A DNA stretch of 60,709 bases, filler included, from Basidiobolus ranarum (taxonomy: Eukaryota), in assembly GCA_040143965.1 (NCBI GenBank). It is 17 parts of 17 records of this genome, joined end to end, with 100 filler letters (N's around TTAATTAATTAA, not from the genome) between each part and the next. Parts side by side here need not be neighbours in the genome. Positions count along the whole stretch, not along the records: positions 50,115 to 53,580 come from JASJQH010002471.1; 16 more parts are not named here. The stretch is one strand, 5' to 3'. The notes under the pieces were generated by a model. That model did not search any database. It was given only the letters and a program-made list of their open reading frames with translations, and was not told the origin of the DNA. This document shows, piece after piece, positions 3,591 to 57,245 of the stretch; positions within the stretch are counted from its first letter, which is position 1, and each line of letters starts with the position of its first letter. The position numbers were made by a program, and so were the translations under genes.

Positions 3591-3627
3591 CCACTCAAGA
3601 GTTACGTGGCCTACTTTGGCAGGGGCC

Positions 3628-3658
<31 letters not shown>

Positions 3659-12401: not shown

Positions 12402-13197
12402 ATGACTCGGTTTGATTTGGTAAACTTCCCAGTAGCCAAAACTGTGCTGCTGGTGACTCGACTGCTAGAGTCTATTATCAAGGCTAATGATAGGGTGCCA
12501 AGTAAAAATGTCACATGGTTTCATTCAAGAGCAGTGCCGAATATATCAGTTCAAGCGTATCTACACCGCATCATCAAATTCGCACCTTTCGATAATGAAG
12601 CATTGTTGGGAGTGCTAGTTTATTTTGATCGCATTACGACATTATCTGTTCGGCGAAATAGTAAATTCATCATCAACTCTTTAAATATCCATCGTCTGTT
12701 AATTGCGAGTTTAGCTGTTTCTACTAAATTTTCCTCTGACGTTTTCTATCCTAACTCTCAATACGCCAAAGTAAGTAATAGCAACATACTGTTTCCACCT
12801 TTTGTAAATTAATCTAATCGGAATGTTAAATATATAGATTGGTGGGATTCCTTTAACTGAGTTGAACCAGCTTGAACTGGAGTTCTTGTTTTTATGCGGA
12901 TTCGATCTCTTTGTGAAGCCAGATATGCTCCAGAGATATGGAGATAAGTTACTTGCGTTAGCCCAAATGGGCAATGGAAAACATAACGATATCAGCATCT
13001 CCTACGGAGTTAAACGTAATATTCCGAACCATGAGGATACAGAGACAGAGAATGCAGCCATCAAAAAACACAGTAGACGAAAGACCTATCACCTAACAAT
13101 TCAGCAGCCATACACAAGCCCTGGAAAATCATGTATATCTATATCATCCCTGCTTACAGATACACCTATATTGAAAACTGTGCATACTGAGCAATGA
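12402..13197 (+). CDS. Pho80/Pcl-type cyclin, 2 exons (intron ~12771-12837)
   Basis: Motifs FHSRAVPNISVQAYLHRI, NIHRLLIASLAVSTKFSSDVFYPNSQYAK|IGGIPLTELNQLELEFLFLCGFDL. Confidence 0.92.
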
Positions 13198-13679
13198 AAA
13201 AGTACAAGTAATTCCCTCACTACTTCACAGCTCGCTAACTCGTAAATTTGTAACACCAACTCGTAGATATATGCCCACTTCTCCACCTCGCTTGTCCATA
13301 TGTATGTTCTATCGGACACTGAGTTTTAACCATTCTAGTAGTGTTCACTTTCAATGTAAATTTTGTTATTCTCATTACGCTATCGCATTTGTGTTGCTGG
13401 CATTTACTGTCTGAAATCCTTAATCCTTCTCTGAAAGTGTACTTGTAACCAATGACAAATGAGATTCTGTAAAGTTAATCAGCTATCGAAATAAATCTGG
13501 TAAATAATGAAGCATTTAAACCAGTTTTCTATTCAATTCATATCTCAGTTACTAGTGTATGTCGCTTTTTGTTAGTAACAGTGGCTCTGGATATCGCTAG
13601 GTTTGTTACGTCAGTTTAGGGGTCATCAAGCTTTAGTTTGGTATATTAGATTAACATTAATTGAACCCTCAACTAAATA

Positions 13680-13973
13680 GTCATGTAAACTAATCCTATG
13701 TAAGGTATAAATTTCTCAAAGTTCTGTCTAGCTAATTGTTTGGTTAATATATCAGCAATCATGTCTTCTATAGAACAATAATTTAAATCAATAAACCTAT
13801 TCTCTATATTCTCTCTAATAAGATGATGTATAATATCTATATGCTTGCTTCTAGTATGAAATATGGTATTTCTATCTAATTTAATACCACTTTGATTGTC
13901 TGGAAATATAGTATTGGGGAAATATCATAAATAGCCCAAGTTTATTAGGAGTTCTCTTAACTATGTTGCATTT
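13680..13973 (-). mobile_element. Decayed Ty1/copia RNase H fragment
   Basis: Minus strand gives FHTRSKHIDI..HLIRENIE..YCSIEDMIADILTK with in-frame stops. It is interrupted by LTR-B at 13974. Confidence 0.8.
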
Positions 13974-14250
13974 TGTTGGAGGATCTTGACAAAATGGAGG
14001 TAGACTTTGTATATTAGAAGCAACCTATGATAGTGTGTTTTAGTTACTTTATTCTTAAGAGTATATGGTGACTTATATAGTAGAAAAGTAAATCAATTGC
14101 TTGAGTTATTCAGGAGTTTGTGTAATAAGATATAATAGATAAGTGGGGGTAATAAGACATACTTGTTATATAGATATAGAGATATTCCTACTTATAATAT
14201 AGGGGCTATAGATACATTGCTTTCTGTTTCTGATATATGTATCATAACTA
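13974..14250 (-). mobile_element. LTR family B copy (truncated by contig end)
   Basis: Begins TGTTGGAGGATCTTGAC and aligns with the copies at 37929 and 50487. Confidence 0.88.
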
Positions 14251-14350
14251 NNNNNNNNNNNNNNNNNNNNNNNNNNNNNNNNNNNNNNNNNNNNTTAATT
14301 AATTAANNNNNNNNNNNNNNNNNNNNNNNNNNNNNNNNNNNNNNNNNNNN

Positions 14351-15754
14351 CTACGTATTCAAATACTTTGTCAGCATATTGATACATTTCGGCCTCATAC
14401 GATTTCAAAAGGCCTAGCTCATATCCCCAGTCTTTACCATTCTGGATAGTATCGCAGCACGAAGTGCTTGAACTGCGCATAACAACTGGTTCACACGAGT
14501 ACTTCTCTGAATATAAGAATCATTATCGAAGCAAATGGATTCCAGGCCCTTCAAACGCGACATAATCTGATCTATGTTAGAAAGACGACCTCCTCTTTCT
14601 TTATCTAAGCGGAGTTGAAGCTCTCTATTCCAACGTCTTTCGAGATCTTTAGTCTGCTTTTCCAAAGACTGGGAAAGTTGATTGAAGTATTCCTTTTTGA
14701 TCTCATCTTTTTCATGTAGGAATCGCTCTCTCATGTGTGCTTGAAGATCCGCAAGTTGTTGAGAGGCGGCGTCCTTTTGCTTTTCTAAAACCTCTGTGAA
14801 GTGTTTAGTTTGCTTTTCAATCTCATCTTGAAGAGCTTTCTTTTCTCCATCCTTAAGAGAAGAGATATGACTTTGGAGTTCATGAATAGCTTCTTTTGCT
14901 TTTTGAACTACGGTAACATAGTTTTCTTGAGTAAATGTTTCATCATTCAAAGATTTAAGAACGCGGTTAATATTTCCTAAAACGTTGTTGACCGTGGGGT
15001 CATTAGATTCAAACTCGGGAACATCGAATAAGGCATGTTTGATCTTTCGGAAAGCTTCACCAGCATCTTCTACGGCATGGCTAAGTGCTTCAGTAGGAGG
15101 GCGAATAGCAACATCCTCCTGAGAATCCGTTATGATAGTAGAGGCAGGAATAAAATTTGGCTGTGATACGGCCTGAGCCTCGGGTTGAATTGTGGCCCTA
15201 GGGGTAACAACATCGTCTTTAGGAAATCCAAACTGGGGTTCCTCTGTCTTACGGAGGTCTTCTATCAACTTTTTAGCATCATTGGTATACTCCACGAGTT
15301 TGTTATATAATTGACTGCCATATTCAGGTAGTTTTTGTGCCTCACTTTGAAGACGACCTAAAGGATCCTTTTCGTTCTCAATTTCAGTAACGAAATCTTT
15401 AGCACCAGGTACATTCTCAGTGAATAATTTTCTGAAATTCTCATCCTTTAAGGCGTAAAATCCAGAACCAACATAACCAGCTCCACCTAAAACGGCCAAA
15501 AGTGAAAAAGTTTTTAATAAAGAACGTCCTTTCTTTGGGGTTACGGGAGTGACAGTTGAGTTGGTAGTGACTTCAGTGGTGTATGGCTAGTGAAGTAAAT
15601 TCGAATTATTGATTTACGTCTACAAATCCAAATTTCGTGGTATATATACCTTTCTAAATACTAATGTGCGAGAATTGTGTGCTCTTGAGGCGGCTCTTAT
15701 AGTAGCTTGAGAAGCCAAAGATCTTTTTGTTGAAACTTGAACGCCTCTAATCAT
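14351..15754 (-). CDS. MIC60: MICOS subunit Mic60/mitofilin, 5' part
   Basis: Mitochondrial presequence MIRGVQVSTKRSL.., an intron at ~15588-15649, TM segment LLAVLGGAGYVGSGFYAL, ENFRKLFTENVPGA, a long coiled coil and ERGGRLSNI. A second intron (GTAAAG..CTGAC..TAG) ends at the contig edge. Confidence 0.85.
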
Positions 15755-17147
15755 ATTTCGTTATCTATACAGTGATGTAAAGTTAGAACAAAGATTGACA
15801 TTGATATTCAAGGAAAACAAATACCCGAAGTTAGGTAGTGATGGCAAGAAAGTCAGTTTACCTTCAAAGGATGAGTAGTTCTTTGTACAATCAAATCCTT
15901 TTTGGGGAAACCAATTTTGGGGTATAACGAGATTAAAAAATTTCACCTTATTCATATGATTCTCATTTGCACATGATTTATACTTTGCTTCTTACCCCAC
16001 ATCCTTTCACTAAACGATTTTCTGCCAGTATTGAATGGTGAGGAATACATCAAAATTGGATTTACCGAGAGTAGTTCAACGATTACCATTGGATTTCAGA
16101 CCATTATTAGAGCATACGTCAAATCTTGTGAAAGAGGCTTACGAACCTTCAAATTTTATTATGCATAAATAGAAGTTGCTTAAGGAAACATGTTTATATA
16201 TATGTTTACCATCGACCTCCACACTTTTGTTGATCTATAGGTACCCGGCATCACTGACCCCACATTATAGCCCATTACATCATCAATTGTTTACTAGTTA
16301 TACTTCCCGTAGCTTATATCACAAGCTCTCTTCCACCATAAAATTGGTTTCGTGCTCTCAATGGAGTAGAAGATAAAATGGAATTAGTGCATTGCAAACT
16401 TGGAATTCTCTTGATGTTTAAATGGTATTTGAGATGGCAGTTTCAAAGTATGTTGGAATATCTCAGATTCTTAAATATATTGTTACAGAGTTCTCTCAAT
16501 ATCTGTTATTGGTAAACGTAGTTGTCTGCAAAGGTAAAGTATTGAATAGCCCTTGCTGAGTATGCTCCTGTGAGTAACACTCATTCGATAACTTCTGATA
16601 TACCATAATATATTTTCTTTCTAGTCATGTCTAGTAGGAAGTAGACAATACGCTTCAAATTTACCAAAATTATTTTGGATTATTGTATTGGTGAAACAAA
16701 GGCATTTTATGCACTACATCAGAAGTATAGAACAGGTGATCTAATCATATTAGATGCTAACAACTTATCCAGAGCATATGTTTGTTCTGGAGATTCCCAA
16801 AACTTACTGTCAATCCAGTTGAAGTACACATCTGTAGCACCCAAATCCTATAAATCATGCCTAGCATATTCAATGTTTCCTTGACTGGGTATCTCTCAAG
16901 TTAATATCAAAGCATTCAGTTGGAATAATAGATCTTGAAGAAGCTGTGAAAATTTGATGTTGAATTTATCAAAGTAATATACACTTAGCGCATACTTCAT
17001 CTAATTATCCCAAGTGCTTGTAATTCATCCCAAATACCACTCATGAGTAAAAGTTATCAAGATATTAAACCTCTTGATTCATGCTTAGTTGTATATTAAA
17101 AGGCTGATTTTGCTGATACTCAAAAGGTGTGATCATTAACTTCATCC

Positions 17148-17465
17148 TGTTGAAATTATCATTGCCTAAACGCCTATATAGTCATATATAGCTTAGTAGT
17201 TAGTTATTCCATATTTCACTAAGATATTACCCATTATTCTCATGAGGAATTTAGTTAGAAATTTGAAGATATATAGATTTTTCAAAGAAGCCCCAAACCT
17301 TGCACACATGTTTCTGGGACCTTCCTAAACACATTCCACTTGCTAGTTTGCTTACATCCTGACAAAACTAGAAATGTCAACTTTAACTCAATAAATCAAT
17401 AAGTGAAAACATCAATTTCTCTAATTCTCCAAACCACTTCCAACAGGCTCCCAATTACTCTAACA
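17148..17465 (+). mobile_element. LTR family A solo LTR
   Basis: TGTTGAAA...CTAACA termini, with flanks CATCC/CAGCC (5-bp TSD, one mismatch). Aligns with the copies at 28080 and 37441. Confidence 0.85.
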
Positions 17466-17631
17466 CAGCCTCCTCATCATATTTCAAGTGGATCCAGAGG
17501 AGTCAGTATACTTAGTAGCTCTACCTCTATATCCCTTCCCAGCTGTAGGCAAATAGTTACATGAAGTATACCTTTCAATAATCCTACCTAGTGGACATAA
17601 ATTTGATCTTCTTAGTATAAGGATTAACAGC

Positions 17632-17834
17632 TGTTGAAGTATTTGGGAGCTTGTTGGAAGTGGTTTGGAGAATTGGAGAAATTTGATGGTTTTCACTTGT
17701 TGATTTATTTGAGTAGAAAGTTGACAGTTATAGTTTTGGCAAGTTGTAAGCAAACCAGCATGTAGAATATGTTAAGGAAGATCCCAGGAACATGTGTGCA
17801 AAGTTTGGGGCTTCTAGCACAAGTTTGAAAAATC
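17632..17834 (-). mobile_element. LTR family A partial copy, inverted relative to 17148
   Basis: Reverse complement of the 3' half of LTR-A (TGTTGAAGTATTTGGGAGCTTGTTGGAAGTGG...). Confidence 0.85.
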
Positions 17835-17934
17835 NNNNNNNNNNNNNNNNNNNNNNNNNNNNNNNNNNNNNNNNNNNNTTAATTAATTAANNNNNNNNNN
17901 NNNNNNNNNNNNNNNNNNNNNNNNNNNNNNNNNN

Positions 17935-18224
17935 ATGGGAAGAGTGGAAACGTGGGGAAAGGTGCATTGAATCAAACGGTAACGTTCCCTGCACGTGGAG
18001 ATCTCACCTTTCCGCTACCCTTCCACCTTTTGTACACCGCAAGTGACCCTGACAGCCAAGCAGCTCTTAAAGATCTAGCAACTAGATGTGGAATACTAGG
18101 TGGAGTACGTCAACCTTTGAGTATGAGTTACACCGCTGAGTTAGACATAGCTCTAATCTCTTGGTTGGGGATCAGGCCTACAATTTCCAACAACATCTCA
18201 TTTGACTGTCCCATTACCATGTGA
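17935..18224 (+). CDS. C-terminus of a fungal LEA_2-like domain protein
   Basis: The pattern F.LPF.L.Y...DP...AL.DL..RCG..GG....L...Y....I..I..LGI.PTI.....FDCP resembles fungal LEA_2-like membrane proteins (recognised from memory). Confidence 0.55.
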
Positions 18225-18586
18225 ATTTAGGGTTAGGCTTATTTGTTACCATTTTTGTTATCATTCTATTTCCAACAATCCATATTCAATATAGCAGCTA
18301 GCAGCATTATGAGTCATAGTTACTCGGATTGAATTATCCCACTCATTCTAGAAAATAAAAAATTACACATTAACCAGCTTTAGGCATGCAGGCTTTAATT
18401 CCTTGCTAATACATGAACTCTCTTTTTTTTCTCCACTTAAAACAAGTTTGTTTTAAGCCTGGCTCAGTGAATGTATTACCTCCTTTTGATTATTTATTCT
18501 ATCTTTGCTCTCTTACCCAATACCGATAGAATACATACCGTTAGACAAGGGAAAGTTTCTCTCCCATTTTATATAGAACACCGACT

Positions 18587-20431
18587 ATGTCACGTACAGG
18601 CTGCATACAGCTATTGTTCATCCTTACTTTGACCTTCTTTGCTGGTCAAGTGGTGTTGGGCTGTATTTCAGGATCTCTAGCACTGGTTGCAGAGTCCTTT
18701 CACTCTTTGAGTGTATCGATTTGTTTGTATGTTACTTTGTATTCTAGCAAGGTAAGCTTCATTGTTCCCATTTCATTGTATACTCCAAGTGAAACGCTTG
18801 ACTTAAAATTATTCTCCCATAAGCTTGCCGAAAAAAACGCACACTCTTCACAATTCACTTACGGTTGGCAACGTGCAGAAATTTTGGGTACCCTCCTAAA
18901 CGGCATACTATTGATTGCCTTAAGCTTTGCCATCGTCATTAATGCCATTCAACGTTGTTTCCATTTCAAAGGTATTTTTTTGTATTGCTATTTTGTCAGA
19001 TGGATACGTTTATCACTAACCTTGATCGATTCTTTTCTGTTGGTTTTTGAATAGAAATGGAATTCCCTCAAATAGTCTTCGCAACTGGTGGCCTCAGTTT
19101 GCTAATTAATATTATAACGGTACTATTGTTTCGAGGTGAGTTAGTTGGGGTTACTTCAAGTGAAAAGAAACGAACCAACATATATTAACGATCTATATTA
19201 TATAGAGAGTACATTCCTCTACCTCAAAAATATACTACGAGACAAATCCCATCTCTCATCATCCCCAACCTCTTCGTTTACCTCGCATAATGAACCCAGA
19301 ATACACTTCTCGTCGCCGTTTGATTCTATAGATAGATGTCACTACGATGAGACTGCACCATTATTTTTACCTCAATTCAATCGACAAAAACTACCGAATT
19401 CACTCACCACTGACTCTTGCGTGGATCGAATCCACTTTGGAAAAAGAAATTTAACATGGTATTCTTATCATCTAGCTAGTTCTACTTTCGGAAGTGTGGT
19501 ACTTCTGATTAGCTCAGGAATAGCCTGGGGCACAGCGTCGACATGGGGATTTCTCGCTGATCTAATAGGCGGGTACTGTACACCCTTCACCCTGTCTTTG
19601 AGCGTTGTAATATGAATACTAACTTCAATGATCTAGCTTAATCATAGCGTCGGTACTCTTCACTACGTCCATCCCGTTAGGTATGTATCGAAGTTGAAGA
19701 ATTTGTAGTGCACAAATCATTTACCATTCTCAATAGTCATCAAAGCTGCCAGCATACTTATGCAAGGCCTACCCAATGCCATTCCATTTGATCTGATTCG
19801 GGATTGTATCAATGAGGTAAGAAAGTAGATTGAATAGAAATAGATCATCTGATGCAAGCAAACTTACCCCATTTTTACTGATCGAAGATACCGGGGATTT
19901 TATCAGTACATGAATTCCACCTTTGGCAGCTCAGAGATGCCACCACTGCCGCATCAATACGAGTTAAAGTGGTTAACGCAACCTCTTACTCACCAATAGA
20001 GCGTAAAGTACAAGAAATACTTCAAAGTTATGGGATTCATAGCTTCACCGTAGAGCCAGAATTTATGAATAGTTATCGAGATGTATTGACCCGTACTACT
20101 AAAGAAAAGGGTTGTGTACTTATTCCAGCTAACTAACCCTAAGCTCCTACTGATATTCTAGTATTCCAAGATTCCGGTTACTCGACCGGCCTCGGTGGAT
20201 GATTTAACGACTTTAAGTGGCCGAAATAGGTATTATCCTCTACCCGTACATATTCCGGTTCAACCCGTCCAACATAAACTTGGCCATGACTCCATTATCC
20301 ACTACTATCAACGTCAACAACAGTATCAACAACAACAGCACCTTCTCTACCCCCATCAGCTTCCTCAATATACAAAACTTACGGTAGTCGGTTCCCCTCA
20401 ACCGCACCGGACTAATAGCTCCTTCTTTTGA
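18587..20431 (+). CDS. Cation diffusion facilitator (Zrc1/Cot1/ZnT1-like) with atypical metal site, multi-exon
   Basis: Motifs SLALVAESFH, FTYGWQRAEILGTLLNG, ILMQGLP, IPGILSVHEFHLWQL and YGIHSFTVEPEF. Several GT-AG introns and a Q/H-rich tail. Confidence 0.88.
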
Positions 20432-21516
20432 AGAGACTCCACCCATCCCATCGTACAAAACAGAACATCAAATATCATGATTGACAAGATTATGGAGATA
20501 GACTCTTTACATAATCTTGTAGACCTAATGCTCCTATTGCCTATTCTAATAAAATCCACCAAGATATCACTCCTAGATAGCTAGTATAGATGCTTATCTT
20601 AAATATATCAAGGGTGAGAGTATCCAAATAGATGAGCAACAATCTCTGGAATATAACAAATCTTCAGTAGATGACAGTATTTGAAAATCACCATTATATT
20701 TTAGATTGCATGAGTGTTTTGAAAGCAATTTTAGTAGGATAACTTGGTTTAAGGTGCTTGATGATATGTTAGTATATTATGACATTAAGAGAAAACTGGC
20801 CAGATAGGTATTGATGGATTTGTATCCTGTCCTAAATCTCACCCTAATACTATTATAGCTCAAAAAAGTATCATTGATGATTGAATATGAAATATTGATC
20901 TTAGAAATATAACTATTCATAAAAGAATGAAGTTAAGTTAATATGTAATATGAGAGTCAGAAATAGATACAATAGCTACCTATCTAGATTGTTCACCTAC
21001 TGTTCAATCTATTACCCAGAAACTTTGCATGCTTTTTTTAAAAAAACAAGCAGTTTATTTTTGAAGAAAGTTGCATGTTGATTGGAACCTGTTATAGGTG
21101 GGTTACACTATTAGCAAAAGGGCTAGAGCTGGGTCAAATAATATAGCTTAGTAACCAGATCAGACTTTCCCGTTTATTTCGGTTTATTATATAAGTACAT
21201 CCATTTTAAAAAGGAGAATCAACAACTTTGGGTCAAGAAGTTTATCGTACTTGTGTTACTCAGATACTGGGTCTAGCGGGTGGCGAAGAATATCTGCATT
21301 CGAACATGTTTTCAGAGATTGATGCTCCGAGGAATTTGAGTTTAAAGGCAATATCATGGCCTCCAGACTCTGACATTACATCATCCCTACCTAGCAGCCA
21401 ACTACCACTGAACGTTNNNNNNNNNNNNNNNNNNNNNNNNNNNNNNNNNNNNNNNNNNNNTTAATTAATTAANNNNNNNNNNNNNNNNNNNNNNNNNNNN
21501 NNNNNNNNNNNNNNNN

Positions 21517-22411
21517 GTAAGGTATTCCTCAGTATGACTGATTTGTGACGCAGGAGATTAACGGAATAACTGTTAGGCTATCACCCGCACGGAATCTTTG
21601 CTGTAGGAGCTTTTGCTGCTGTTGCCACTGAAGGCGCGAATATCAGTGAGGTCTTCCCGGGGCTGAATATTCGGTTACTCACCTTGGATACCAACTTCAA
21701 ACTCCCTTTTTATCGAGATCTACTATTGGGTCGTAGAGTAGCTTCGGTGAGCCGTCGTTCATGCGAAAACATCTTACAAAAAGGTCCCGGCCATTCTTGC
21801 ATGATTGTTGTTGGTGGAGCTACAGAATCACTTAGCGCATTCCCAGGAACCAACGACCTTGTCCTCAGGAAACGGGTAGGATTTGTGAAGCTATCTCTAA
21901 GAACTGGGTATTGTTATGTTGTTTCGTTATTTCCCAGAATTCTGGATAGATACTAATACCAAACTTCTCGTACGTAGTGCTTCCCTAGTCCCAGTGTTTG
22001 GTTTCGGTGAAAATGATATATTTGACCAAGTAGCTAGTGAACCTGGAACGAAAGTTCGTCAGGTTCAAAGTAGAATACAACAGATATTTGGATTCACCGT
22101 ACCATTATTCTATGGACGGGGGATTTTTAATTACGATCTAGGGATCTTACCTCATAGACGGCCTATAGTTGTAGTTGGTAAGTGGTATTTCAATTGAAAA
22201 CCAGAATACTAGTATTATCTTTTTGATTCCAGGTGCTAACTTCTCATTTTTAGTTGGTAAACCAATTGACGTAGAAAAAATCGAGAATCCTACAGAAGAA
22301 GACATCAAAAAATATCATGAGCTATACGTTGCAGCCTTACAGGAACTTTACAACAAGTACAAAGATGTATATGCAAAAGAGCGCGTTTCTGAGCTTCGTT
22401 TCATCGCTTAA
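21517..22411 (+). CDS. DGA1: Diacylglycerol O-acyltransferase 2 (Dga1-like), C-terminal part
   Basis: Catalytic GYHPHG motif, plus IVVGGATESL, LRKRVGFVKL, LVPVFGFGEND, PLFYGRG and LPHRRPIVVVVGKPI. Confidence 0.93.
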
Positions 22412-23870
22412 AGATCCAATGTCTCGCACACATCAGCGTATCTCTTATTCCTAACTTACCTGCATTCATTGGGTTTTAATACTATCGATTCATTAACATA
22501 CACTATCAATAATGTAAGTGTACTGTTGAACAAGTTAGACTAGTGGTGTTGGAGAGAAAGTAGTACTATTTTCTGCGGCACATGGGACGATTTTACACAA
22601 TACCTGGACATACAGTAGCTACCATACATTTTATTGCCAATACCTTTAACTATTAAACATCACCATAATGACTAAACAAGTGTTCCAAAAGTGAATAAAT
22701 CAGGAATGTCATTATTAATTAAGTTCTACCTTGAGCCGATAAACTGTGTAAGGATACTGTGACAGACCGAGAAAACCATCAAGAAAACTCCGACCACACT
22801 GCATAATCCTATGAATATTTCAGGAAGTGCTCGATTGCTGTAGTCCATCATACAAACTGCTCCTAATTGATATAGGAGATAAATTGGTCTAAAATGGGTG
22901 CTGGCATCGAAATGTCAACTTTGCGCGTGATATTTGTGGTCTACATAATGAATTCATTCTATTTGAAGCCAGTTTAGCTGCCGATAGTGGTGTTATCAAA
23001 GACGAAATCTGAACTACCAAACAATCGCATCGTTTATGCAGCTGAATGACAGGTTGGAGACAATATTTTAGATTATCACCAGAGTGTAGCCAAGTGCTCG
23101 TAAGAAATCACATTTCGTACTCATCAGTGCGATCACAATGATGGATTACCACCCCACCCGTCGAGGAGTATTCTCGGTAGGAAAAAACATTGTCAAACTG
23201 TTGAGCTGGTAGGGTAAATTAGATCGGCAGGAGGCTTGATCTCAATGGAATATTTTACACAGAAATCGCACCCATCGGACAGGCTGTGTGATGGTTTACC
23301 CAGATGTATATTGGTGCAGAGCTACCTGTATCATTAACGTGTGCCGGATAAGATTCCAGGTGAATCATTTCAGTAGCACACACTTCCTACGTCACTCTAT
23401 CACCAAGGGATCAATTTCTGCCGCTCCTTCTATATATATCTAATACCCAGACGACGTGGACTTGATCCCTAATGCAAATCTATCTGGGATGTAGAATAGA
23501 GCATCAGGTATATTTGAATCAGCTATGGAATAAGACGATTTTGGTGACGTATGTCGTTCTGCCATAGTGGCCATAAGTGATCTTACAACAAGTGGTATTG
23601 GATGAATATTGAATGGTCCTCTTGGTACGAGGTCTTCACAGATGAGGCTTTCTATGCGCAGATATTAGGCATCAAAAGAAGTGCTTAATTCTGAAAGGTA
23701 CATAAACAGAAACTAGTCAACATTAATTGAGAACCACTCTAACATCTTGGACTTTAATCCCTGTTTGTCCCTAACCAGAAAGTAGAAGACATTAGCAATA
23801 TATGCACTACTACCCATCATTATCAACTTCTTTTTTCATTTTAAATTATAAACTGGAGTATCTTGATATC

Positions 23871-24190
23871 TGTCAAAGTATTATGGGAGCTTGTTGGAAG
23901 TAGTTTTTCGAACTAGTGGAATTGGTGGTTTTCACTTATTGATTTATTGAGTAGAAAGTTGAAATTTGTGGTTTTGTCAAGATGTAAACAAACTAATGTA
24001 TCAAATGTGTTAAGAAAGGTCCCAGGAACATGTGTGCAAAGTTTGGGGCTTCTTTGAGCAATCTATATATCTGAGAACTTCTAAGTAGATTCCTCTTGAG
24101 AATAGTAGGTGATATCTTAGTGAACTATGTAATACTAGACACTAAGCTATATATGACTATATATGTGTTTAGGCAATGCTTATTTCAACA
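23871..24190 (-). mobile_element. LTR family A solo LTR
   Basis: TGTCAAAG...TTTCAACA termini, flanks ATATC/ATATT (degenerate 5-bp TSD); reverse complement of LTR-A. Confidence 0.85.
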
Positions 24191-25095
24191 ATATTCACAG
24201 CAGGCAGACTTCAAAAATTTCATGTAGCCTTGTTAGCATTTAAATGGTCATTTCTGAAAAAATATAATGTAGACTACATTGTTGGTTTCCATACCAGTAA
24301 TGATGAGACATACTGCTGAATGCATTTTAACTGAAGAACTTTTTTGCATAAATATCTTACAATAGCATGCAAATATTATCTTCTTTTGACTTGAGCTCTT
24401 TAACTGATATTCATTCCATATCCGCCCTAAGTCATCAAAGAATGTGGCATTTACTGAACCGGTAAAGAATCTACTGGAGAAATATTTCTTAAGAAGAGTC
24501 CATACAAAAATAATCCCAAAAATCTGTCGAAACAAAATAGAGGATGAAAAAGATATTAAGCAGTGGAGAATCTATTTAATGCAGCAGTGTATATCGTGGA
24601 CTTTTTTTGAACTTAACATCAACACTTTTATGCATGCAATTAACATTTTAATGAATAAATATTTCTTCTAATTCAAATACAAGATTACGCCAATCCAATT
24701 TTCTCTTACCATAATCATGAGAAGTTCTGTAAAAATACTGTCAAACAATTCATTCACCCAGTATCAGTGACACTGAATATCTTGAACATATATGCTAAAC
24801 ATGTATAGATCGAAATTATGTTAAGGCTACTTACTTTAGTTATTGAATTTATTCTCAAAAGTGCGTTATTTTACATTAGTGCTTTAGATGTTCAAAATAA
24901 TGAGAGGGTTATCCTCGATATACATTGTTAATCAGATTAGCATACAATAATACTGACAATTCCACACAGAGCATCATTTCATCCCAGGTGCACTCNNNNN
25001 NNNNNNNNNNNNNNNNNNNNNNNNNNNNNNNNNNNNNNNTTAATTAATTAANNNNNNNNNNNNNNNNNNNNNNNNNNNNNNNNNNNNNNNNNNNN

Positions 25096-28079: not shown

Positions 28080-28573
28080 CGTTGAAATTACCATTGTCTA
28101 AACACCTATATAGTCATATATAGCTTAGTACTTAGTTATCTTATATTTCACTAAGTTATTATCCATTATACTCAATCGGAATTTACTTTGAATATTTTTA
28201 CCAACTTAGAAGTTCTCAGATATATAGATTTTTCAAACGTGTGCTAGAAGCCCAAAACTTTACACACATATTCCTGGGACCTTCCTTAACATATTATACA
28301 TGTTAGTTTGTTTACATTGTGACAAAACTATAAATGTCAACTTTCTAATCAATAAATCAACAAGCAAAAACCACCAATTTCTCCAAATCTCCAAACTACT
28401 TCCAACAGGCTCCCAAATACTTTAACAGGTTATGAGCCCCAAGCTTGCACTCTCTGTAATGTCTACTTCTCAAAATTATGGAACTTTTCCTTCTTCTGAA
28501 AAATTGGATGGAACCAATTATCAAGTTTGGAAAATTAAGATGAAAATGCTGCTGCAAGAAAAAGAACTTTGGG
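28080..28573 (+). mobile_element. Ty1/copia family A 5' end: LTR (28080-28427), PBS GGTTATGAGCCC (28428-28439), gag start
   Basis: The LTR ends TTTAACA and is followed by the PBS. The ORF EKLDGTNYQVWKIKMKMLLQEKELW is a typical copia gag N-terminus. Confidence 0.9.
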
Positions 28574-33134: not shown

Positions 33135-34070
33135 TTTTTGAGAGGCTTCATGAATAGGCCTATACTAGCACAATTGCAATTTGCTTGCAAAAACCCATTA
33201 TAAGTCATATGTAATAAGTCAGGAACCTTCAGAGTAATGTCTTGTTTTTGTTTTTTCCACAATTGGCTCAAATCATGGTGATATTGGGCAAGATTCCACA
33301 TAGCTTCCAAAATGTTAAACCACTCATCATCAGAGCAAGTGATGGTAGCTCTGACATTTAGAGTTTTTTAGTTTGCTGGTTTTCCTATGAGATTTCTACT
33401 TTCATATGCCTAACCAATTTTGGGTTGTTGTGTAGGCTTAATGGTGAAACACATATTTTGCTCTGCTAGATTGTCATAGTGATGTTCATATATATGGTGA
33501 GATTGATTGAAATCCCATATCAGAATGATAGAGGGAGCAGCATGTTGCTGCAGCTCAAGTACAGCATTCTGAAGATCTTGTATCCTTGTTGAGTGACTCA
33601 CTAACTATTGACTAGTTGCTTCAGAACACTGCATGAATTGCAATATTGAGGCATTATTGCTTGTCATGGCCTGTATAGCAGCTTTGTAGTTTTTACTTAT
33701 GATTGCATACAAATTATTGGAGCATTCTGCATGAGATTCCCTGGTTATAATGACTCTGTACAATTTTCTATGGAGTTATGGTTAATGGTTGGCAAAGTAG
33801 ACTTTTTGGAAGTTGATGGTCTTGATGGTGTTTCTGCTGAACTTTGCTCAACTATTGATTTACTATGTAATTGGAGGATTGTAATCTCTTCACTTGCACT
33901 ATTGCTAGAAAGGAAAACATCTGGTAAGTTAATTAATGCATCATTGTTACCTGGGTTAGTTCCCAGCATGTTAATGCCTTCCAAAGTGGATATTGGATTG
34001 CTTTGCAGCTCATCAATTAAGTCCCCTGTTCTTGCTGGTTTCTTTCCTTTCCTGCTGCAGGCTTTACTTG
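33135..34070 (-). repeat. Dispersed ~0.9-kb repeat, also at ~55512-56450; carries a decayed ORF of unknown type
   Basis: The two regions align (e.g. CATGAATAGGCCTATACTAGC; TAGCAxCTTTGTAGTTTTTACTTxTGATTGCAxACAAAT). It abuts the copia RT at ~33130. Confidence 0.8.
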
Positions 34071-37440: not shown

Positions 37441-38630
37441 TGTCAAAATTAGCTTTGCCTAAACAGCTGTATAGTCATATATAGCTTAGTACTTAGTTGT
37501 CTTATGATCCACTATATATTGTCCTTTATTCTCAATCAGAAATAACTTAGAATATTGACACCAACTTAGAAGTTTTCAGATATATAGATTTTTCAAACTT
37601 GTGCTAGAAGCCCCACACTTTGCACACATGCTCCTGGGACCTTCCTTAACACATTTTATATATTAGTTTGTTTATATCTTGACAAAACTATAAATGTCAA
37701 CTTTCTACGCAACAAATCAATAAGTTAAAAATGCCAATTCCTCTAATTCTCCAAACCACTTCCAACAGGCTCCCAAATACTTTGACAGGTTATGAGCCCT
37801 GAGCCTGCACTCTCTGTAATATCTACTTCTCAAAGACAAGGTGCCTTTAACTCAATTTGTCTAAACCTTAAAAACAAGCTGCTAATTTGATGTTCAAGAG
37901 CTAAAACTGGCAAGAAGGTATGGAAAGCTGTTGGAGGATCCTGACATAATGGGGTTAGACATTGTGTATTAGAAGCAACCTATGATAGTGTGTTTTAGTT
38001 AGTTTATTCTCATGAGTATATGGTGACTTATAGGGTAGAAAGGTAAATCAATTGTTTGAGATATTCAGGAATTTATGTAATAAGATATAATAGATAAGTG
38101 GGGGTAATAAGACATAATTGTTATATAGATATAGAAACATTCCTATTTAGAATATAGCGGCTATAGATACATTGCTTTCTGTTTCTGATATATGTATCAT
38201 AGCTAAAGTTAACTATGATGTTGAATAAAGATTAATTATCCAACAAAAGCCTTGGAAGACCCCTACCAAACAAGTTGTACTGCCAACAAGTCATCTCTAA
38301 GAAGACAATTCTTTAACTTAAAGATGAAGCCAAGAGAAGACAGTCAATCTCTAATTAATAGCATCACTATTTTTAGTGGATGAAATGGAATGCATTGGAG
38401 TACCTACCACTGATCAAGATGTCATAGTTAGAGTCCTGAACAGTCTGTTGCACAGGCTTCAGAACCTAGTAATAGCTCTAGTTTCTTGAACTGATAATTT
38501 GACCTTAAATTATGTATTTGGTAGACTTCTGGATCAAGATTCATGCAAGTTCAGATCCAACTAAAAGAATGAAGAAAATGCTTTCATAGGCTATGGGAAA
38601 CCTTCCTGCAAAGGTCAAAAGTACAGTAGT
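37441..38630 (+). mobile_element. Copia family A insertion: LTR 37441-37787, PBS GGTTATGAGCCCTGA, decayed gag
   Basis: TGTCAAAA...TTTGACA termini, PBS at 37788-37802, and leader sequence shared with 28428-28470. The right boundary is approximate. Confidence 0.82.
37929..38245 (-). mobile_element. LTR family B solo LTR with perfect TSD
   Basis: TGTTGGA...TCCAACA termini (317 bp), flanked by AAAGC on both sides. Confidence 0.93.
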
Positions 38631-42325: not shown

Positions 42326-42636
42326 TCTTGAAATTAACATAGCCTAAACATCTATATAGTCGTATATGGCTTGGTATTTAGTTAGTCTATATTTGGCTAT
42401 GATGTAACTCACTAATATCAAGAGAAGTTTACTTAGAAGTTTGAAGATATATAAATTTTGAAGACTTGCCATAGAGGCCCCGAACTTGTTTGGGACCTTC
42501 CTTGACATATTCTAAGTGCTTTCTTGCTTACCCAACTATAAATGTCAACTTTCTACTCAATAAATCATCAATTGAAGACCATCAATTCTTACTAGTTCAC
42601 CAAACCACTTCCAATAACTCCCAAAATGCTTCAACA
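42326..42636 (+). mobile_element. Diverged LTR family A copy
   Basis: Shares GCCTAAACAxCTATATAGTC, TGGGACCTTCCTT and AATGTCAACTTTCTACTCAATAAATCA; ends TCAACA. Confidence 0.75.
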
Positions 42637-42767: not shown

Positions 42768-42876
42768 TGTTGGATAATTAATCTTTATTCAACATCATAG
42801 TTAACTTTAGTTATGATACATATATCAGAAACAGAAAGCAACGTATCTATAGCCCCTATATTCTAAATAGGAATAT
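42768..42876 (+). mobile_element. LTR family B, partial
   Basis: TGTTGGATAATTAATCTTTATTCAACATCATAG.. is the reverse complement of the end of 37929-38245. Confidence 0.88.
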
Positions 42877-44229: not shown

Positions 44230-44483
44230 ATTGATGATGATGACTTTGCTTCAATGTACAAATTGCTCCTTTTCTACTCGACTCGTATGATAAACGTAAA
44301 CATGGCCGCGTAAATATGCGCATCCAAGAGAACATGTATCCCATCTTGGATAAGCCTTTTCATAAGTAAATACATTGATATTGGTTTTGTTACTTTCTTT
44401 AATTGGTCGTTTGTTGTTTCGTGTCACAAATACTGGTTCATCTCAAATTCCACGTGTTTCAATGGGATAAAGTAATAGGTAGA

Positions 44484-44575
44484 AGGGAAGGAATATAGGG
44501 TTATTGATTAGGGAAGGAATATAGGGTTATTGATTAGGGAAGGAATATAGGGTTATTGATTAGGGAAGGAATATA
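44484..44575 (+). repeat. Minisatellite, 26-bp unit AGGGAAGGAATATAGGGTTATTGATT x3.5
   Basis: Perfect tandem copies start at 44484, 44510, 44536 and 44562 (last one partial). Confidence 0.95.
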
Positions 44576-49500: not shown

Positions 49501-49903
49501 CAGGAGCATATAGGATATTGGTCAAAGAACAATACAACAATTTTCCATTAATATCAGCATCCATGTACAGTGTTTCCTACGTCTACTGTGTGAGCAGCTT
49601 GATTATCACCCAAGCAGACTCTCTTGACTGCTAAGTATTTTTATGGAGTTTAGGCTACAATAATAACTGCATTATTGAAAGGCCTGCCACAAGTTTAAGT
49701 GCTTGTGCTTGAATTTAGTACCACATAGCTAAAGCCAAATAGTGCATATGTCAATCTATCTCACCAATAAGCCTGTCTTGCAGCTGTCCCAGAAATGCAA
49801 TCAGCAATGAAAGTATACATGAGCAAGTTAAGAAGAGTGCTGTGCTGGATAATAATACCGTCTGGCATCTCATTAACCCATTGCATTACTTCCATTACTG
49901 ACT
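46547..49903. repeat. Strongly CpG-depleted, decayed repeat-like DNA (family unassigned)
   Basis: CG dinucleotides are nearly absent and ORFs are short and broken, as in the neighbouring TE contigs. No diagnostic motif was recognised. Confidence 0.45.
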
Positions 49904-50014
49904 CCCTAACAGAAATTTGAGGATTGTTATCGTAGGAAAACCGTCACAATTTTAATCCATTTGGGATTGACCGTTTACTTACCATCATAAAATCGTCAAG
50001 TTAGATTTGATTTT
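49904..50014 (+). mobile_element. Terminus of a dispersed element starting CCCTAACAGAAA (other copies at 53378-53580 and from 54560)
   Basis: Three copies share the same sharp left boundary after a T, in unrelated flanks. One interrupts a copia element. Confidence 0.75.
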
Positions 50015-50114: not shown

Positions 50115-50803
50115 CTCAATAGTTTATAAAGCATATTCTCAATAAGTAATTTATGAATTATTAAGCTAAAAAGTAGCCAGTTTACTTATAGCATGAGTTG
50201 TTGTGATCCTGGTCCTACACATATTTCCCTAAATGCCAATCTGTCTTTTTCTTTGAAGGTTGCCCTGGCTTCTTGACATGTTGGCTTCTTTGTTTCAGTG
50301 CAGAAATTGTACTTTCTTCTTCAGAAGTTTCTTCTTCTTCATATGGTAGAACTACTTCCCAGACATGTTTCCCTTCAAGCACAAGTTGCATCTTGAATTT
50401 CCATTCATGGAAATCTTCCCCATTGAATGTTAGAATATTAGTAATCACCTTATGGGAAGAAGACTCTAATTCACTTGCTGCTACCATGTTGGAGGATCTT
50501 GACATAATGAGGGTAGAAATTGGGTATTAAAAGCAACTTATGATAGTATGTTTTAGTTACTTTACTCTTAAGAGTATATGGTGACTTATATAGTAGAAAA
50601 GTAAATCAATTGTTTGAGATATCTAGGTGTTTGTATAATAAGATATAATACATAAGTGGGGGTTATAAGACACACATGTTATATTGATATAGAGATATTC
50701 CTATTTGGATTATAGGGGCTATAGATACATTGCTTTCTGTTTCTGATAAATGTATCATAACTAAAGTTAACTATGATGTTGAATAAAAATTAATTATTCA
50801 ACA
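50115..50803 (-). mobile_element. Copia family B 5' end: LTR 50487-50803, PBS TGGTAGCAGC (50477-50486), gag start
   Basis: The LTR end CCAACA is followed directly by TGGTAG. The ORF FNGEDFHEWKFKMQLVLEGKHVWEVV is gag-like. The element is inserted in the host RNase H at KQPSIALS. Confidence 0.9.
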
Positions 50804-52926
50804 GAAAGTGCTATGGAAGGTTGTTTCTTTGAATTCCAAGAAATAGCTCCATTATAGCAAAGAAATAAGTATCCTGCTGTAGATCTCCTGTCTTCAATAT
50901 CTCTTCCCCAATTTGTATCTGAATATCCCATCAGATCAAAGTTTGATCCAGAATATGTGTATTTTAAGCATAGATCCACAGTACCTTTCAAATACATAAA
51001 AATTTGCTTAACTGCTATGATTGATCAGATCCATATTTTTGAAGATATTGGCACATAACTCCCACAGAATATGCAATATCTGGCCATGTTCCAACCATGA
51101 TATACATTGAGCTACCAATCATGTACTGATAAGGAAATTTCTGACTTTTGAAATTGAGTGTTTCCAAGAAAGCATCTATCTTGCTATTCCAAGCTCTTGG
51201 AGATTGTTTTAATCTATATAGTGTTTTCCTGAGTCTGCAAACTTTTTTAGGGTTTTTTGGCTCCACAAATCCATCTGGCTGGTCCACATAGATCTCTTCA
51301 GCAAGCTCACCATTCAAAAGCAGCTTTAACATCCATTTGATGTATGATAAACTAATATTTAGCTGAAATTGCTAAAGTAGTCTACTTGAATTAAACTTTG
51401 CTACGGGAGCAAAGGTTGCTGTATAAGCTATTCCTGGTGTTTGGGAACACCCTTTGGTTACAAGTCTAGCCTTGTACCTTTCTATATTGTCATCAGAGTT
51501 GTATTTAACTTTAAACACCCATTGGTAGCCAATTGATTTTCTATCATCAGGTAAGTTGGTTAAAATTTTAAAGTCTGGGGCTCATGCATTTGAGCTGTAC
51601 AGGCATAGGCCCAATCTTAGGACTCATTGAAATAGCAATCAGGGCAATTCCCGATCCAATTTGATCTCCTGGTTTGGGATAAAGGTACTACAACTTCTGG
51701 CATTTTATTGGGAACTTCAGTATGCAAAATTTTGGTTGAAGGGTCCACAAGAATGCAATTTTCTTCATTATTTTGTATTGTATCAATTTGAATGATTGGA
51801 TCAGGCAAAAGTTGACTTTTGTCTATATCTGAGGTCATTTTGGGTGAAATTTTTCATTTTATTAAGCAAAACATCCCTGGACTTGATTAACTTGAAAATT
51901 TTGGTATCATTCAGTCTGTAGGCCTTAGCTTGAGCATAATAACCAAGAAATATGCATTTCTCACTTTTTGGATCAAGTTTTGATCAATTTTTGGTCATAA
52001 TTTTGACATAAGCAACGCATCCAAAGATCCTTAAATGTTTTACATCAGTCTTAACTCCAAACTAAGCTAGAGATGGCATAGAGTTAGACAGACTTCTAGT
52101 AAAACTCCTACTCTTCAGATATACTGCTATAGTAACAGATTCCACCCAAAAGTCATGACATAAATTTTGTGCATTTATCATAGATCTTGCCACTTCTATT
52201 ATAGTCTTGTAGCTCTTTCAGCAACTCCATTTTGTTGAGGTGAATAAGGGACAGTAGTTTCTTGCTTAATTCCAAGAACTTTGCAAAAATGCTTAAATAG
52301 TGTAGAAGCATATTCTCCACCATTATCAGTATGTATTTTCTTGATTTTAGTTCCAGTTTCAGTCTCCACAAGTGTTTTAAAATCTCTAAAGATAGAGAGA
52401 GCTTCTTCTTTTCTTTCCATAAAGTAGACCCAAGTGTATCTAGTATATTCATCAATAAATGTGATTAAATATCTCTTCCTGCCCAAACATAAATTTTGCA
52501 CAGGTCCACACATATCTGAATGAATTAGATCCAATTTTTTAACAAATTTAATTAAACCAAAGCTCTTAAACAATTGTGTAGCTTATTTTATATATATACA
52601 ACCCTCACAAATTTCCATTTTGGTTGGGGGGTATATTTGAATTTGAGCAATTTGGCAATTTTTGATCATTTTGCTTAAATAATTACATCTAGTATGGCCA
52701 AATCTCTTATGCCTTAATTGAATAGTTTCTTGATTGGAATAACTTATATTTACACATAAACTTCTTTGATTATATGTAAGTTTGTAAAAATTTTGATTCT
52801 TTTCTCCCAAAGCCAAGTAATTCCCATTTTGATCAGTGATGATGCATCCTGACTTACCAAAATTGATTTTTAGCCCTGCTGAGGTGGCCTTGCATACAGA
52901 TATTAATTCTTGGCACTATTTGTAAC

Positions 52927-53210
52927 TGTTGAAAGTCTGGAGACTTGTGGTACAAGCAGTAATTCCTAAAAAGAAGAAAATTTGGAGTATGGTGACTGCA
53001 TCTGAACACAAAGTCTAAAGCCAATCAGTTGCTTGTAAAGCTGGAATGCGAAAGTACTATACATTGACATACTAGGTTAAGGTTCCCCAGCAATATAAGC
53101 ATAGCATACAAGGACAGGTAGCTCAGTGGTTAGAGCACCTTGCTAGAGTGAAGGAGGTCCCAGGTTGAAATCCTGGCCAGACTAACATTTCTCCCTAAAT
53201 AAGTTCAACA
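52927..53210 (+). mobile_element. Solo LTR (284 bp) containing a tRNA-like sequence
   Basis: TGTTGAA...TTCAACA termini, perfect GTAAC duplication on both sides, CCAAT at 53021 and TATAA at 53094. Confidence 0.88.
53112..53184 (+). tRNA. tRNA-like/pseudo-tRNA sequence inside the LTR (isotype not assignable)
   Basis: 73 nt: GGACAGG-TA-GCTC-AGTGGTTA-GAGC-A-CCTTG-CTAGAGT-GAAGG-AGGTC-CCAGG-TTGAAAT-CCTGG-CCAGACT-A. The A box is intact, the B box has one mismatch and the acceptor stem has two mismatches. Confidence 0.7.
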
Positions 53211-54559
53211 GTAACATGTAGTACATCCTTCCAAGTATAAACTTTCTCATCAGAAGCTCCAGTTAAATTAACTTGAATTGCTCCCATTCCAATAGCATCC
53301 AATGTGCAGTCATCCCCTATGAAAACCATTCTAATTGGGATTTCTTCATATGCCACTAACCAATGTTTTTCATTTGTCTCTAACAGAAATTTGAGGATTG
53401 TTATTGTAGGAAAACCGTCACAATTTTAATCCATTTGGGATTGACCTTTTACTTACCATAATAAAATCATCAAGTTAGATTTGATTTTAATCAATTTTTT
53501 CAGTTTCAGGAGTGAAATTTCAAGATCTTGCAAAATAGTTGCAAATGATTGGCTAAAATCTCAGAGAACTATGGATCAACNNNNNNNNNNNNNNNNNNNN
53601 NNNNNNNNNNNNNNNNNNNNNNNNTTAATTAATTAANNNNNNNNNNNNNNNNNNNNNNNNNNNNNNNNNNNNNNNNNNNNCACACAAGTACCCTCCTGCT
53701 CTCTAACCTCTTGTCTCTGTTTCCAGTCCCTGTCCAGTTCCCTATTGTGACATTCTTCATGGTTTCCATATCTGATGAAGCACTTTCAATTCATGCACCA
53801 CAAGCTCTAATGATTAAGTAAACTGGTTTTGGAATAGTAGGTCAATATCTGATAGATACCTGGATATAATCTGGCTTGCTATATAATGAGACAAACATTG
53901 GAAATTTATTCTCATCTTTCCCTCTATTTAATAGAAAATCATTTCTTATTCAACCAAAGATTTTGCCAAAGTATTTCTCATGGGTGAATTCATGGTAAAA
54001 GAGAATATATGTGTCACCAAGTGGCTGCCACACTGATTCACTTCCAAACACTACTTGTGCACTATGTTATTTGACCATTCTATTAGGGATATTTAAAGTA
54101 GAGTTCCAATACATTACTAAAACACATATTCAGCCATTTCAAATTGGATTAGCATTTGCATGCCATTCAATTGCAGTGGCTGATTAGAGATAATATTTCA
54201 AAATGGGATATGTTTGCCTACTGATTCATCCATTCAGGAGTCTTTGGGTTTGGGGAGGTATTCTGGTTATATGTCCACATTTAATAACAAAATTTATTCA
54301 ATTTGTTCAAGACATTTTGGCATTCTCTCAGACACATCTCTTTAAACATGGACAGAAAGTTTTATAGCATATGCTTCAGCAGACAGTGCACAGATTCACT
54401 GAGAGTGCAAGCTTGATGGCCAGGATGGTGTTAGATCAAACTAGATCAATATTATCTGCTGACTTAATCTCACATTACTCAACCATCACCAACACACAAC
54501 TTGTGTCAGTATTTATCTTGCTATTCATATCAGCCATGGTACTGACTTTGATATTAAAT

Positions 54560-54860
54560 CCCTAACAGAAAATTGAGGATTGTTATTGTAGGAAAACCAT
54601 CACAATTGTAATCCATTTAGGATTGACTGTTTAGTTACCTTCATAAAATCATCAAGTTAGATTTGATTTTAATCAATTTTTTTCCATTTCAGGAATGAAA
54701 TTTGAAGATCTTGAAAAATAGTTGCACAGGATTGGTTACAATCTTGGAGAACTATGGATTAACACATGTGCAAAAAACATAACTCAAATTTTACACATTT
54801 ACCACTTGAATGCTAATTTTTCACCTTTGAAATTCCTAGTTTCTTTGATATATTCTCTTG
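54560..54860 (+). mobile_element. Longest copy of the CCCTAACAG element terminus
   Basis: Aligns with 49904 and with 53378-53580 through GAGAACTATGGATxAAC. The right boundary is not determined. Confidence 0.65.
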
Positions 54861-56599
54861 AATATTTTTATTATTGTATTAACATTCCTGAATCAACATT
54901 TTTCCAGCTATCTGGTGGATAGCCTGAGATATTTTGCCACTCTGTATATATTTCTTCCCAGATATCTGCATGGTCAACACCAAATTGCATGTCAAGTTCA
55001 ATGTCTTTCTTCTGAAGCTTTTGTTGCCATACTTGCACTATGTTTTTTCATCACACTTTTGAGAATACTCCTCAAGCACTTTGACTACTTTCATACATCC
55101 TTGTAGTGTGACACTACTGAGGGTACGTTGTGGCATCTGTGTGGCTTTTGCTTGCCTTTAACTCTGGGGTTAATTTCAACACTTTGAAAAGTACCAGTTG
55201 AGGTTGGAGAGCCATGAGTTTTATTTGCTGGTGTTTTGGCTTCTTCAGAAGTGCCAGTTCTTGGATAAACTTCCAAATTTAGCAATCTTCCAACTGGTGA
55301 ACCTGGTTCCATGGTGAAATTAAGCTTTTTTGCCAGTATATCTGACTCTGGAGATGCAGATCTCTGTAATGGTGTGAAGAGTCTGGTCATTAAAACAGTA
55401 GAGCCTGAACTCACTGGCTCCTTTGCTTTTCCCTTAGGCTTACTAATGTCCTGCTCCTTGAGTACTCTTTAGCTGCTTTAATATCTTTTCCAAGTAAATG
55501 ATTGTGTAAGTTTTTGAGATGTTTCATGAATAGGCCTATACTAGCCCATTTGCCATTTGCTTGCAAAAACACAGGATAAGCCACATGATATAAGTCAAGA
55601 ACCTTCAGAGTAATGCCTGGTTTTTAGTTTTCAACAATTGGCTCAAATCCAGGGGATTTTAGGCAAGATTCTACACAGTTTCCAAAATGGTCAACCACTC
55701 ATCATCAGAGCAAGTAATGGCAGCTCCAACCTTCAGAGTCTTTTGGTTTGCCAGCTTTCCAATGATATTTCTACATTCAGGTGCCCAAGCAATTTCAGGT
55801 TGTTGAATAGGCTTAATGGCCCAACACATATTCTGCGCTACTAGATTGTCATGGTGACATTGATATGTATGGTATGGGATTGATTGAAATCCCAGATGAG
55901 AATGGATGGAGAGTGCAGCATGATGCTGTAGCTCAAGTGCAGCATTCTGAAGGTCTTGTATCAATGTTGAGTGACTCTCTAACTGTTGACTAGTTACCTC
56001 CAAATGCTGCATTAATTGTGATATTGCAGCATTATTTCTTGTCATGGCCTATATAGCAACTTTGTAGTTTTTACTTCTGATTGCACACAAATCATTATGG
56101 TATTCTGCCTGCAATTCCTTGTTTTAATAATTCTATCCAAAATTTCTTTGGAGGGTAGTTCAATAGGGGGCAAAGTAGCCATTTTGGAAGTTGATGGTTT
56201 TGATGGTGTTTCTGTTGAACCCTGCTCAAGTATTGATTTAATACATAACTGGGGGACTACAATCTCTTCACTCCACTATTGCTAGAAAGAAAAACATCTG
56301 GTAAATTGAACAATGCTTCTTAATTACTTGAGTTGGTTTCCAGAATGTTAATGCCTTCCAAGGTGCATAGCAGATTGCTAGACTGCTCATCAATGAAGTC
56401 CTCTGTACCTGCTGGTTTATTTCCTTTTGTGCCAGCAGGCTTTTGCTTGGAGGCCAATTGTGATTTAGCTTTTGAATGCTTTTTGAATGGCATTGAAGTT
56501 TTCAGATGGTAAAATTGGTGTAGTCAAATTACTTATTAACAGCTTATAATAAACCAAAATTGTTATCCATAACCAGAAATATCTTGTAAATCCCTTGAA

Positions 56600-57145: not shown

Positions 57146-57245
57146 NNNNNNNNNNNNNNNNNNNNNNNNNNNNNNNNNNNNNNNNNNNNTTAATTAATTA
57201 ANNNNNNNNNNNNNNNNNNNNNNNNNNNNNNNNNNNNNNNNNNNN

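Follow-up and report, generated by a model that had tools for sequence, protein, structure and literature searches.

A solo LTR with a tRNA-like module interrupts a copia gene of Basidiobolus ranarum and probably derives from a Helenus-like retrotransposon

Introduction

A short repeat inserted in a copia gene of the fungus Basidiobolus ranarum contains what looks like a whole tRNA. The locus thus raises the question whether a tRNA-derived promoter can be an integral part of a long terminal repeat (LTR) in this lineage, and to what kind of element such an LTR would have belonged. Two known systems offer themselves for comparison. Cassandra, as told by Kojima, is a TRIM of plants with 5S rRNA in its LTRs, and Helenus ("TRIMp3") is a TRIM with a tRNA-like sequence in its LTRs (Kojima, 2024, PMC10886601). 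An earlier note on the DNA studied here had stated that Helenus elements with 5-bp target-site duplications are reported from some fungi, and the description by Kojima bears this out: fungal members make 5-bp duplications, are frequently found as solo LTRs, and are apparently mobilised by copia elements, mostly with the tRNA-iMet anticodon loop as priming site (PMC10886601).

According to the same source, Helenus elements consist of two LTRs around no more than a PBS (primer binding site) plus a PPT; the screen was for elements of <1000 bp, the longest family has 1263 bp, and the LTRs measure 120-323 bp across all members (PMC10886601). Isotype and anticodon of the embedded pseudo-tRNAs disagree, and tRNA-Ser-AGA is among the inflated classes in fungi. 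The fungal hosts given by Kojima are Pucciniales and two Agaricomycetes in Table 1, with Amylostereum additionally in the text; the screen began with Repbase LTRs and was extended only to related genomes. Kojima further states that "not a few" LTRs in Repbase contain tRNA-like pieces, of which only some can be classed as TRIMs, and proposes that Helenus arose by insertion of a SINE into the LTR of a TRIM (PMC10886601).

Materials and Methods

The stretch of DNA analysed, called the window throughout, comprises 60,709 nucleotides from assembly GCA_040143965.1. It contains spacers at 16 places, each made of 44 N, TTAATTAATTAA and another 44 N, from 3491-3590 to 57146-57245 and recurring every 3,565 to 3,588 bases. 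These spacers are not biology; a number of repeats are truncated by them, as happens at 14251, 42877 and 53581. Rfam scans were run locally with permissive settings (52000-54200) and on the whole window at both thresholds, with the same tRNA score in all of them.

Results

Genes and repeats of the window

The window contains a gene-dense stretch at 7411-21953 with ordinary eukaryotic genes, in which Pfam detects fragments of five proteins: O-methyltransferase, Pho80-type cyclin, MIC60/mitofilin, cation-efflux protein and diacylglycerol acyltransferase (DAGAT); copia fragments lie between these genes at 13685-14086. The mitofilin fragment matched three proteins, one of Basidiobolus ranarum with 79% identity, one of B. 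meristosporus with 78% and a third with 24%, and the host is by this measure Basidiobolus-like. A U6 spliceosomal RNA gene was found on the minus strand at 3577-3689 (Rfam RF00026, 61 bits, the cut-off being 44), the 3' part of which enters the N stretch 3547-3590. A direct repeat of 936 bp is present at 33135-34065 and 55511-56443 with 82% identity, overlapping open frames without Pfam match (for example 55674-56048, minus strand), and may be another mobile element of uncertain type. In addition, a 26-bp unit forms a tandem array at 44458-44575; of the 40-nt segments compared there at 26-bp spacing, three are identical and one more has 63% identity.

A 284-bp unit with LTR ends is inserted into a copia gene

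The following features were located at the insertion.

50803-53425, minus strand: host copia polyprotein region, degenerate (stops and frameshifts) and interrupted by the element (Pfam; tblastn with P0004, P0010 and P0013)
52922-52926, no strand: left copy of the target-site duplication GTAAC, 5 bp
52927-53210, plus strand: solo-LTR-like element, 284 bp, with 7-bp inverted ends TGTTGAA (52927-52933) and TTCAACA (53204-53210)
52927-53111, plus strand: U3-like part, 185 bp, 38% GC, with the putative promoter motifs CCAAT (53021-53025) and TATAA (53094-53098)
53112-53184, plus strand: tRNA-like module, 73 nt, a predicted pseudo-tRNA with anticodon AGA, 53% GC (ARAGORN, Rfam tRNA, fold z-score)
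53119-53129, plus strand: box A, TAGCTCAGTGG, intact
53163-53173, plus strand: box B-like sequence, GGTTGAAATCC, tRNA position 56 being G and not C
53185-53210, plus strand: 3' tail, 26 bp, 31% GC, its last 24 nt resembling the resident copia LTR at its 3' end
53211-53215, no strand: right copy of the duplication GTAAC

The interrupted copia carries Pol_BBD, pre-integrase, integrase, reverse transcriptase and RNase H domains; on the minus strand, Pfam places Pol_BBD at 53195-53425, gag_pre-integrs at 52586-52915, rve at 52202-52582 and RVT_2 at 51018-51371. In a tblastn alignment with the copia relative P0013, the right flank of the element extends to about residue 352 and the left flank resumes at residue 356. 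When the element and one copy of GTAAC are removed, the joined flanks translate into ..KDVLHVTNSAKN and, after a separate one-base frame slip, LISVCKATSAGLK, where P0013 has ..KEVLYVPEIAKNLLSVSKATSEGLS; across the site they read ..DVLHVTNSAKN and then LISVCKATS, with ..EVLYVPEIAKNLLSVSKATS as the counterpart in P0013. Since P0013 is continuous across the site and the flanks read through, the 284 bp arrived as one unit and made the 5-bp duplication. The element and its perfect duplication had been described in the earlier note, and the sequence of 52700-53450 confirms its coordinates. The stretch 52927-53210 is a real, well-bounded solo LTR, with the TG..CA ends and the 5-bp duplication expected of one.

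The longest open frame inside the element is about 30 residues. CCAAT and TATAA had been reported upstream of the tRNA-like part and were found there, TATAA starting 18 bp before it. Internal repeats within the element, including a likeness between the T arm and the 5' end of the element, were considered and rejected; they amount to 6-8-mers with E values of at least 0.9 and were treated as chance.

Another repeat touches the same copia region: a stretch of about 200 bp is present in three copies, 89-96% identical, at 53377-53580, 54559-54763 and 49903-50014. The copy at 53377-53580 overlaps the Pol_BBD coding sequence, an overlap suggestive of partial duplications, or of nested pieces of one and the same copia.

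The element contains a degenerate tRNA

ARAGORN called a single tRNA in the whole 60,709-base window, Ser-AGA on the plus strand at 53112-53184. The same module matched the Rfam tRNA family RF00005 with 47.2 bits (gathering score 29; E 5.7e-07 for the whole window). In the ARAGORN cloverleaf the D stem (4 bp) and the T stem (5 bp) are perfect, as the earlier note had it; the anticodon stem, which it had also counted as paired, contains a G.G mismatch, and the acceptor stem contains two A.A mismatches and a G.U pair. The lowest-energy fold of the module RNA is not a cloverleaf, and it is no more stable than expected (z-score -0.11; 88 of 200 shuffles folded at least as well).

Serine tRNAs have a long variable arm. 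The variable loop of the module has 5 nt and is short, giving a class I shape despite the serine anticodon AGA. The T loop reads TTGAAAT, so that tRNA position 56 is a G. Where a functional tRNA-Ser would have the long variable arm, intact stems and C56, the module thus has a 5-nt loop, three stem mismatches and G56, and judged by its sequence it is a pseudo-tRNA, not a working tRNA.

The internal promoter boxes are preserved to different degrees. Box A is intact and fits the pattern TRGCY..YGG given by Kojima for Helenus; the box B-like sequence at 53163-53173 contains GGTTG and not the conserved GGTTC, which in a single copy may be a mutation of that copy. In yeast SUP4 the exchange C56G lowers TFIIIC binding 370-fold (PMC11811891), and the recruitment of TFIIIC is described as governed mainly by the B box (PMC11724288). 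The A and B boxes had been called near-intact in the earlier note; this holds for box A, which is perfect, and not for box B, which carries just this exchange. Because of G56, it is therefore doubtful that the copy at 52927-53210 would be driven by Pol III. Going by the sequence and the yeast analogy, Pol III is unlikely to use this copy well as a template, and with respect to Pol III it is probably a dead relic.

A run of at least four T was not found between the module and the end of the LTR. This observation is uninformative, as 2249 of 5000 shuffles also lacked TTTT; it does imply that any Pol III transcript would have to end beyond the LTR. For Helenus itself, Pol III transcription is unvalidated according to Kojima (PMC10886601).

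The module appears integral to the LTR

A tRNA segment that had inserted into an existing LTR on its own might have left traces at its borders. The 57 bases before the module and the 31 bases after it have two 5-mers and no 6-mer in common, and a common 5-mer was likewise present in 1678 of 2000 shuffles. Neither an A-tail nor a simple-repeat tail nor a SINE body was found beside the module within the element, of which 26 bp remain between the module and the LTR end. The claim that the tRNA part has neither a duplication of its own nor an A-tail therefore stands, the flanks having only chance-level 5-mers in common. The base composition of the module (53% GC) differs from that of the upstream part (38%) and the 3' tail (31%). 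This would fit a foreign origin of the module at some time; in the copy at 52927-53210 it is accompanied by no mark of a separate insertion, and the pseudo-tRNA looks integral to the solo LTR.

Resident LTR families have similar ends

A second copy of the 284-bp element was not detected in the 60.7-kb window with blastn or nhmmer. Two short patterns of the element gave 0 matches in metagenome_contigs, as did one scan of the prokaryotic genome_contigs and one of viral_contigs; since fungal DNA is next to absent from these collections, the 0 matches say little either way. That there is one copy only in the window and none in the collections was counted, with small weight, against a Helenus-like reading.

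Two other LTR families were identified in the window.

28080-28427, 37444-37787, 17149-17465, 23870-24193 (minus strand) and 42328-42636, with a partial copy at 17631-17834: the resident copia's LTR family, length about 345 bp (blastn)
37929-38245, 50487-50803, 13974-14250 (cut by a spacer) and 42768-42876 (minus strand, cut by a spacer): second LTR-like family, 317 bp, TGTTGGAGG..CCAACA, copies 88-97% identical

Copies of the first family are 67-88% identical to each other (blastn), and run TGTTGAAAT..CTTTAACA, the start being TGTTGAAATTA. Two of them are directly followed by GGTTATGAGCCC and then by copia gag, and the family is the LTR of the resident copia. The sequence GGTTATGAGCCC is its PBS, presumably of the tRNA-iMet anticodon-loop type. 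In the second family, the copy at 37929-38245 interrupts a copia gag and is flanked by the duplication AAAGC; a matching duplication was not found at the copy 50487-50803. Both families share with the element the signature of TGTTG..CAACA-type ends and 5-bp duplication, and both lack a tRNA-like part, the tRNA match in the element being the only one in the whole window.

Ends of the type TGTTG..CAACA are widespread in copia elements. The first 8 nt of the element, TGTTGAAA, are identical to the consensus of the resident copia LTR, and its 3' end, CTCCC.AAAT..TTCAACA, is similar to the CTCCCAAATACTTTAACA of that LTR. To judge this similarity, the last 24 nt were aligned to the 3' ends of five copia LTRs, and 7, 110, 238, 544 and 579 of 5000 shuffles, respectively, scored as well. 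The five copies are one family and not independent tests, so the 3'-end similarity is one modest piece of evidence; that it is modest for four of the five copies (110 to 579 of 5000 shuffles) was counted against a Helenus-like reading, and the identical first 8 nt together with the best alignment (7 of 5000 shuffles) in favour of it. The 317-bp family yielded no match to the 3' end of the element. Beyond the ends, the element showed no similarity to either family, and an overall homology between the element and the copia LTR was rejected.

Comparison with Helenus and other known elements

The element resembles Helenus as published in several respects. It has a tRNA-derived sequence with box A inside an LTR, a 5-bp duplication as in the fungal members, and a length of 284 bp, which falls within the LTR range of 120-323 bp; it occurs as a solo LTR, and the Ser-AGA anticodon of its pseudo-tRNA is at odds with the shape of the molecule. 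Its genome also harbours a copia family with TGTTG..CAACA ends and a PBS that is presumably of the iMet anticodon-loop type. It differs from Helenus in its host, Basidiobolus as opposed to Pucciniales and Agaricomycetes, and in box B, which reads GGTTG and not GGTTC. The likeness is one to the published description and not an alignment to named Helenus consensus sequences, and it concerns an element known as a solo LTR alone.

With Cassandra the element shares the principle of an LTR that houses a small-RNA gene and its internal Pol III promoter; the embedded RNA is tRNA-like in the element, not 5S, and the Cassandra lineage is one of plants. Consistent with this difference, a permissive Rfam search of 52000-54200 found no 5S rRNA, its only matches being the tRNA and two chance matches to bacterial sRNAs. 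A and B boxes within a head of tRNA origin also characterise the tRNA-derived SINEs (SINE2). In a SINE this head stands at the 5' end and is followed by a tail, whereas here 185 bp precede it, and the element has TG..CA inverted ends, no tail and a fixed 5-bp duplication around the whole unit. The resident copia LTR, finally, agrees with the element in the first 8 nt and a similar 3' end, and differs in the rest of the LTR and in having no tRNA-like part.

In the main text of Kojima (PMC10886601), the supplements of which may list more, there are 0 occurrences of Basidiobolus, Zoopagomycota, Mucoromycota and Entomophthor-. The titles and abstracts listed in literature searches mention no tRNA-bearing LTR, either for Basidiobolus or for any other fungus that diverged early. 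The suggestion that the element is possibly new for its lineage is plausible in the light of this silence and of the Basidiobolus-like mitofilin.

Discussion

We consider it probable, with some reserve, that the element at 52927-53210 is the solo LTR of a Helenus-like, copia-type retrotransposon with a tRNA-derived module built into its LTR. It would then be likely to record a Helenus-type LTR in a fungal lineage without an earlier report.

The competitor that deserves most attention holds that the solo LTR comes from an ordinary, long element of the copia type, either autonomous or a large derivative without autonomy, in which the tRNA stretch is incidental and Pol II starts from CCAAT/TATAA, and not from a miniature (TRIM/Helenus) element. 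We regard this as unlikely, though it has several points to its credit. The length of the parent cannot be read from a solo LTR, box B is damaged, CCAAT (53021) and TATAA (53094) lie upstream of the module, and among the Repbase LTRs with tRNA-like pieces only some belong to TRIMs (PMC10886601). Against it, the module has the shape of a whole tRNA, its box A is perfect, and it is not a fragment; the 284 bp lie inside the Helenus LTR range, and the two other LTR families in the window are without a tRNA-like part. Less probable still is an ordinary solo LTR into which a tRNA retrocopy or the head of a tRNA-SINE had inserted secondarily, in this copy only. The GC content of the module would agree with such an event, and Kojima derives Helenus itself from the insertion of a SINE into a TRIM LTR (PMC10886601); the flanks of the module, with no duplication beyond chance 5-mers and no A-rich or simple-repeat tail, speak against it, as do the mere 26 bp to the LTR end and the absence of a SINE body.

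Some DNA transposon superfamilies have TGT..ACA ends and make short duplications. The perfect 7-bp inverted repeat at the ends and the 5-bp duplication could accordingly be those of a small non-autonomous DNA transposon (MITE) and not of an LTR, a reading that we hold to be very improbable: the inverted repeat has only 7 bp, and two LTR families in the window, of which one continues into a PBS and copia gag, likewise have TGTTG..CAACA ends with a 5-bp duplication. That the module is a working tRNA-Ser gene which by chance lies in repeat DNA is scarcely credible, even though both ARAGORN and Rfam call it a tRNA. Its shape is the short one of class I, lacking the long variable arm that serine tRNAs have; it has two A.A and one G.G stem mismatches, a G at the invariant position 56 and a preferred fold other than the cloverleaf, and it moved as part of the 284-bp insertion.

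Under the favoured reading, a solo LTR of a Helenus-like element, the history of the locus can be sketched as follows. A complete 284-bp unit was integrated into the resident copia and made the 5-bp duplication; the original insertion would have had two LTRs, and later recombination between them would have left one. In an active parent, TFIIIC and Pol III would have been recruited by the A and B boxes of tRNA origin, with transcription starting near 53112. The sequence upstream of 53112 would then correspond to U3, and the tRNA-like part together with the tail to R-U5. A start from the upstream CCAAT/TATAA as a Pol II promoter would be an equally possible alternative. A copia, most probably one related to the resident family, would have provided reverse transcription and integration in trans; the resident family shares the first 8 bases of the element and resembles its 3' end.

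On a more tentative level, the Basidiobolus lineage, early-diverging and of zygomycete grade, may possess its own family of miniature LTR elements with a tRNA promoter, independent in origin of the Helenus of rusts and mobilised by the resident copia; we put this forward as possible and stop short of calling it probable. If it is true, LTR elements with Pol III promoters would reach a third fungal lineage at the level of phyla. It would also suggest that the capture of tRNAs by LTRs recurs wherever such copia elements, with a PBS that is presumably of the iMet type, are active.

By itself, a single decayed solo copy is a modest point of annotation. Confirmation of a family would place an early-diverging fungal lineage among the few hosts in which LTR elements with small-RNA promoters are known, and would support a repeated origin of such elements. 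In rust fungi, pseudo-tRNAs carried by LTRs inflate the tRNA counts (PMC10886601); should the family be confirmed, tRNA gene counts in genomes of the Basidiobolus type may be inflated by LTR-borne pseudo-tRNAs as well.
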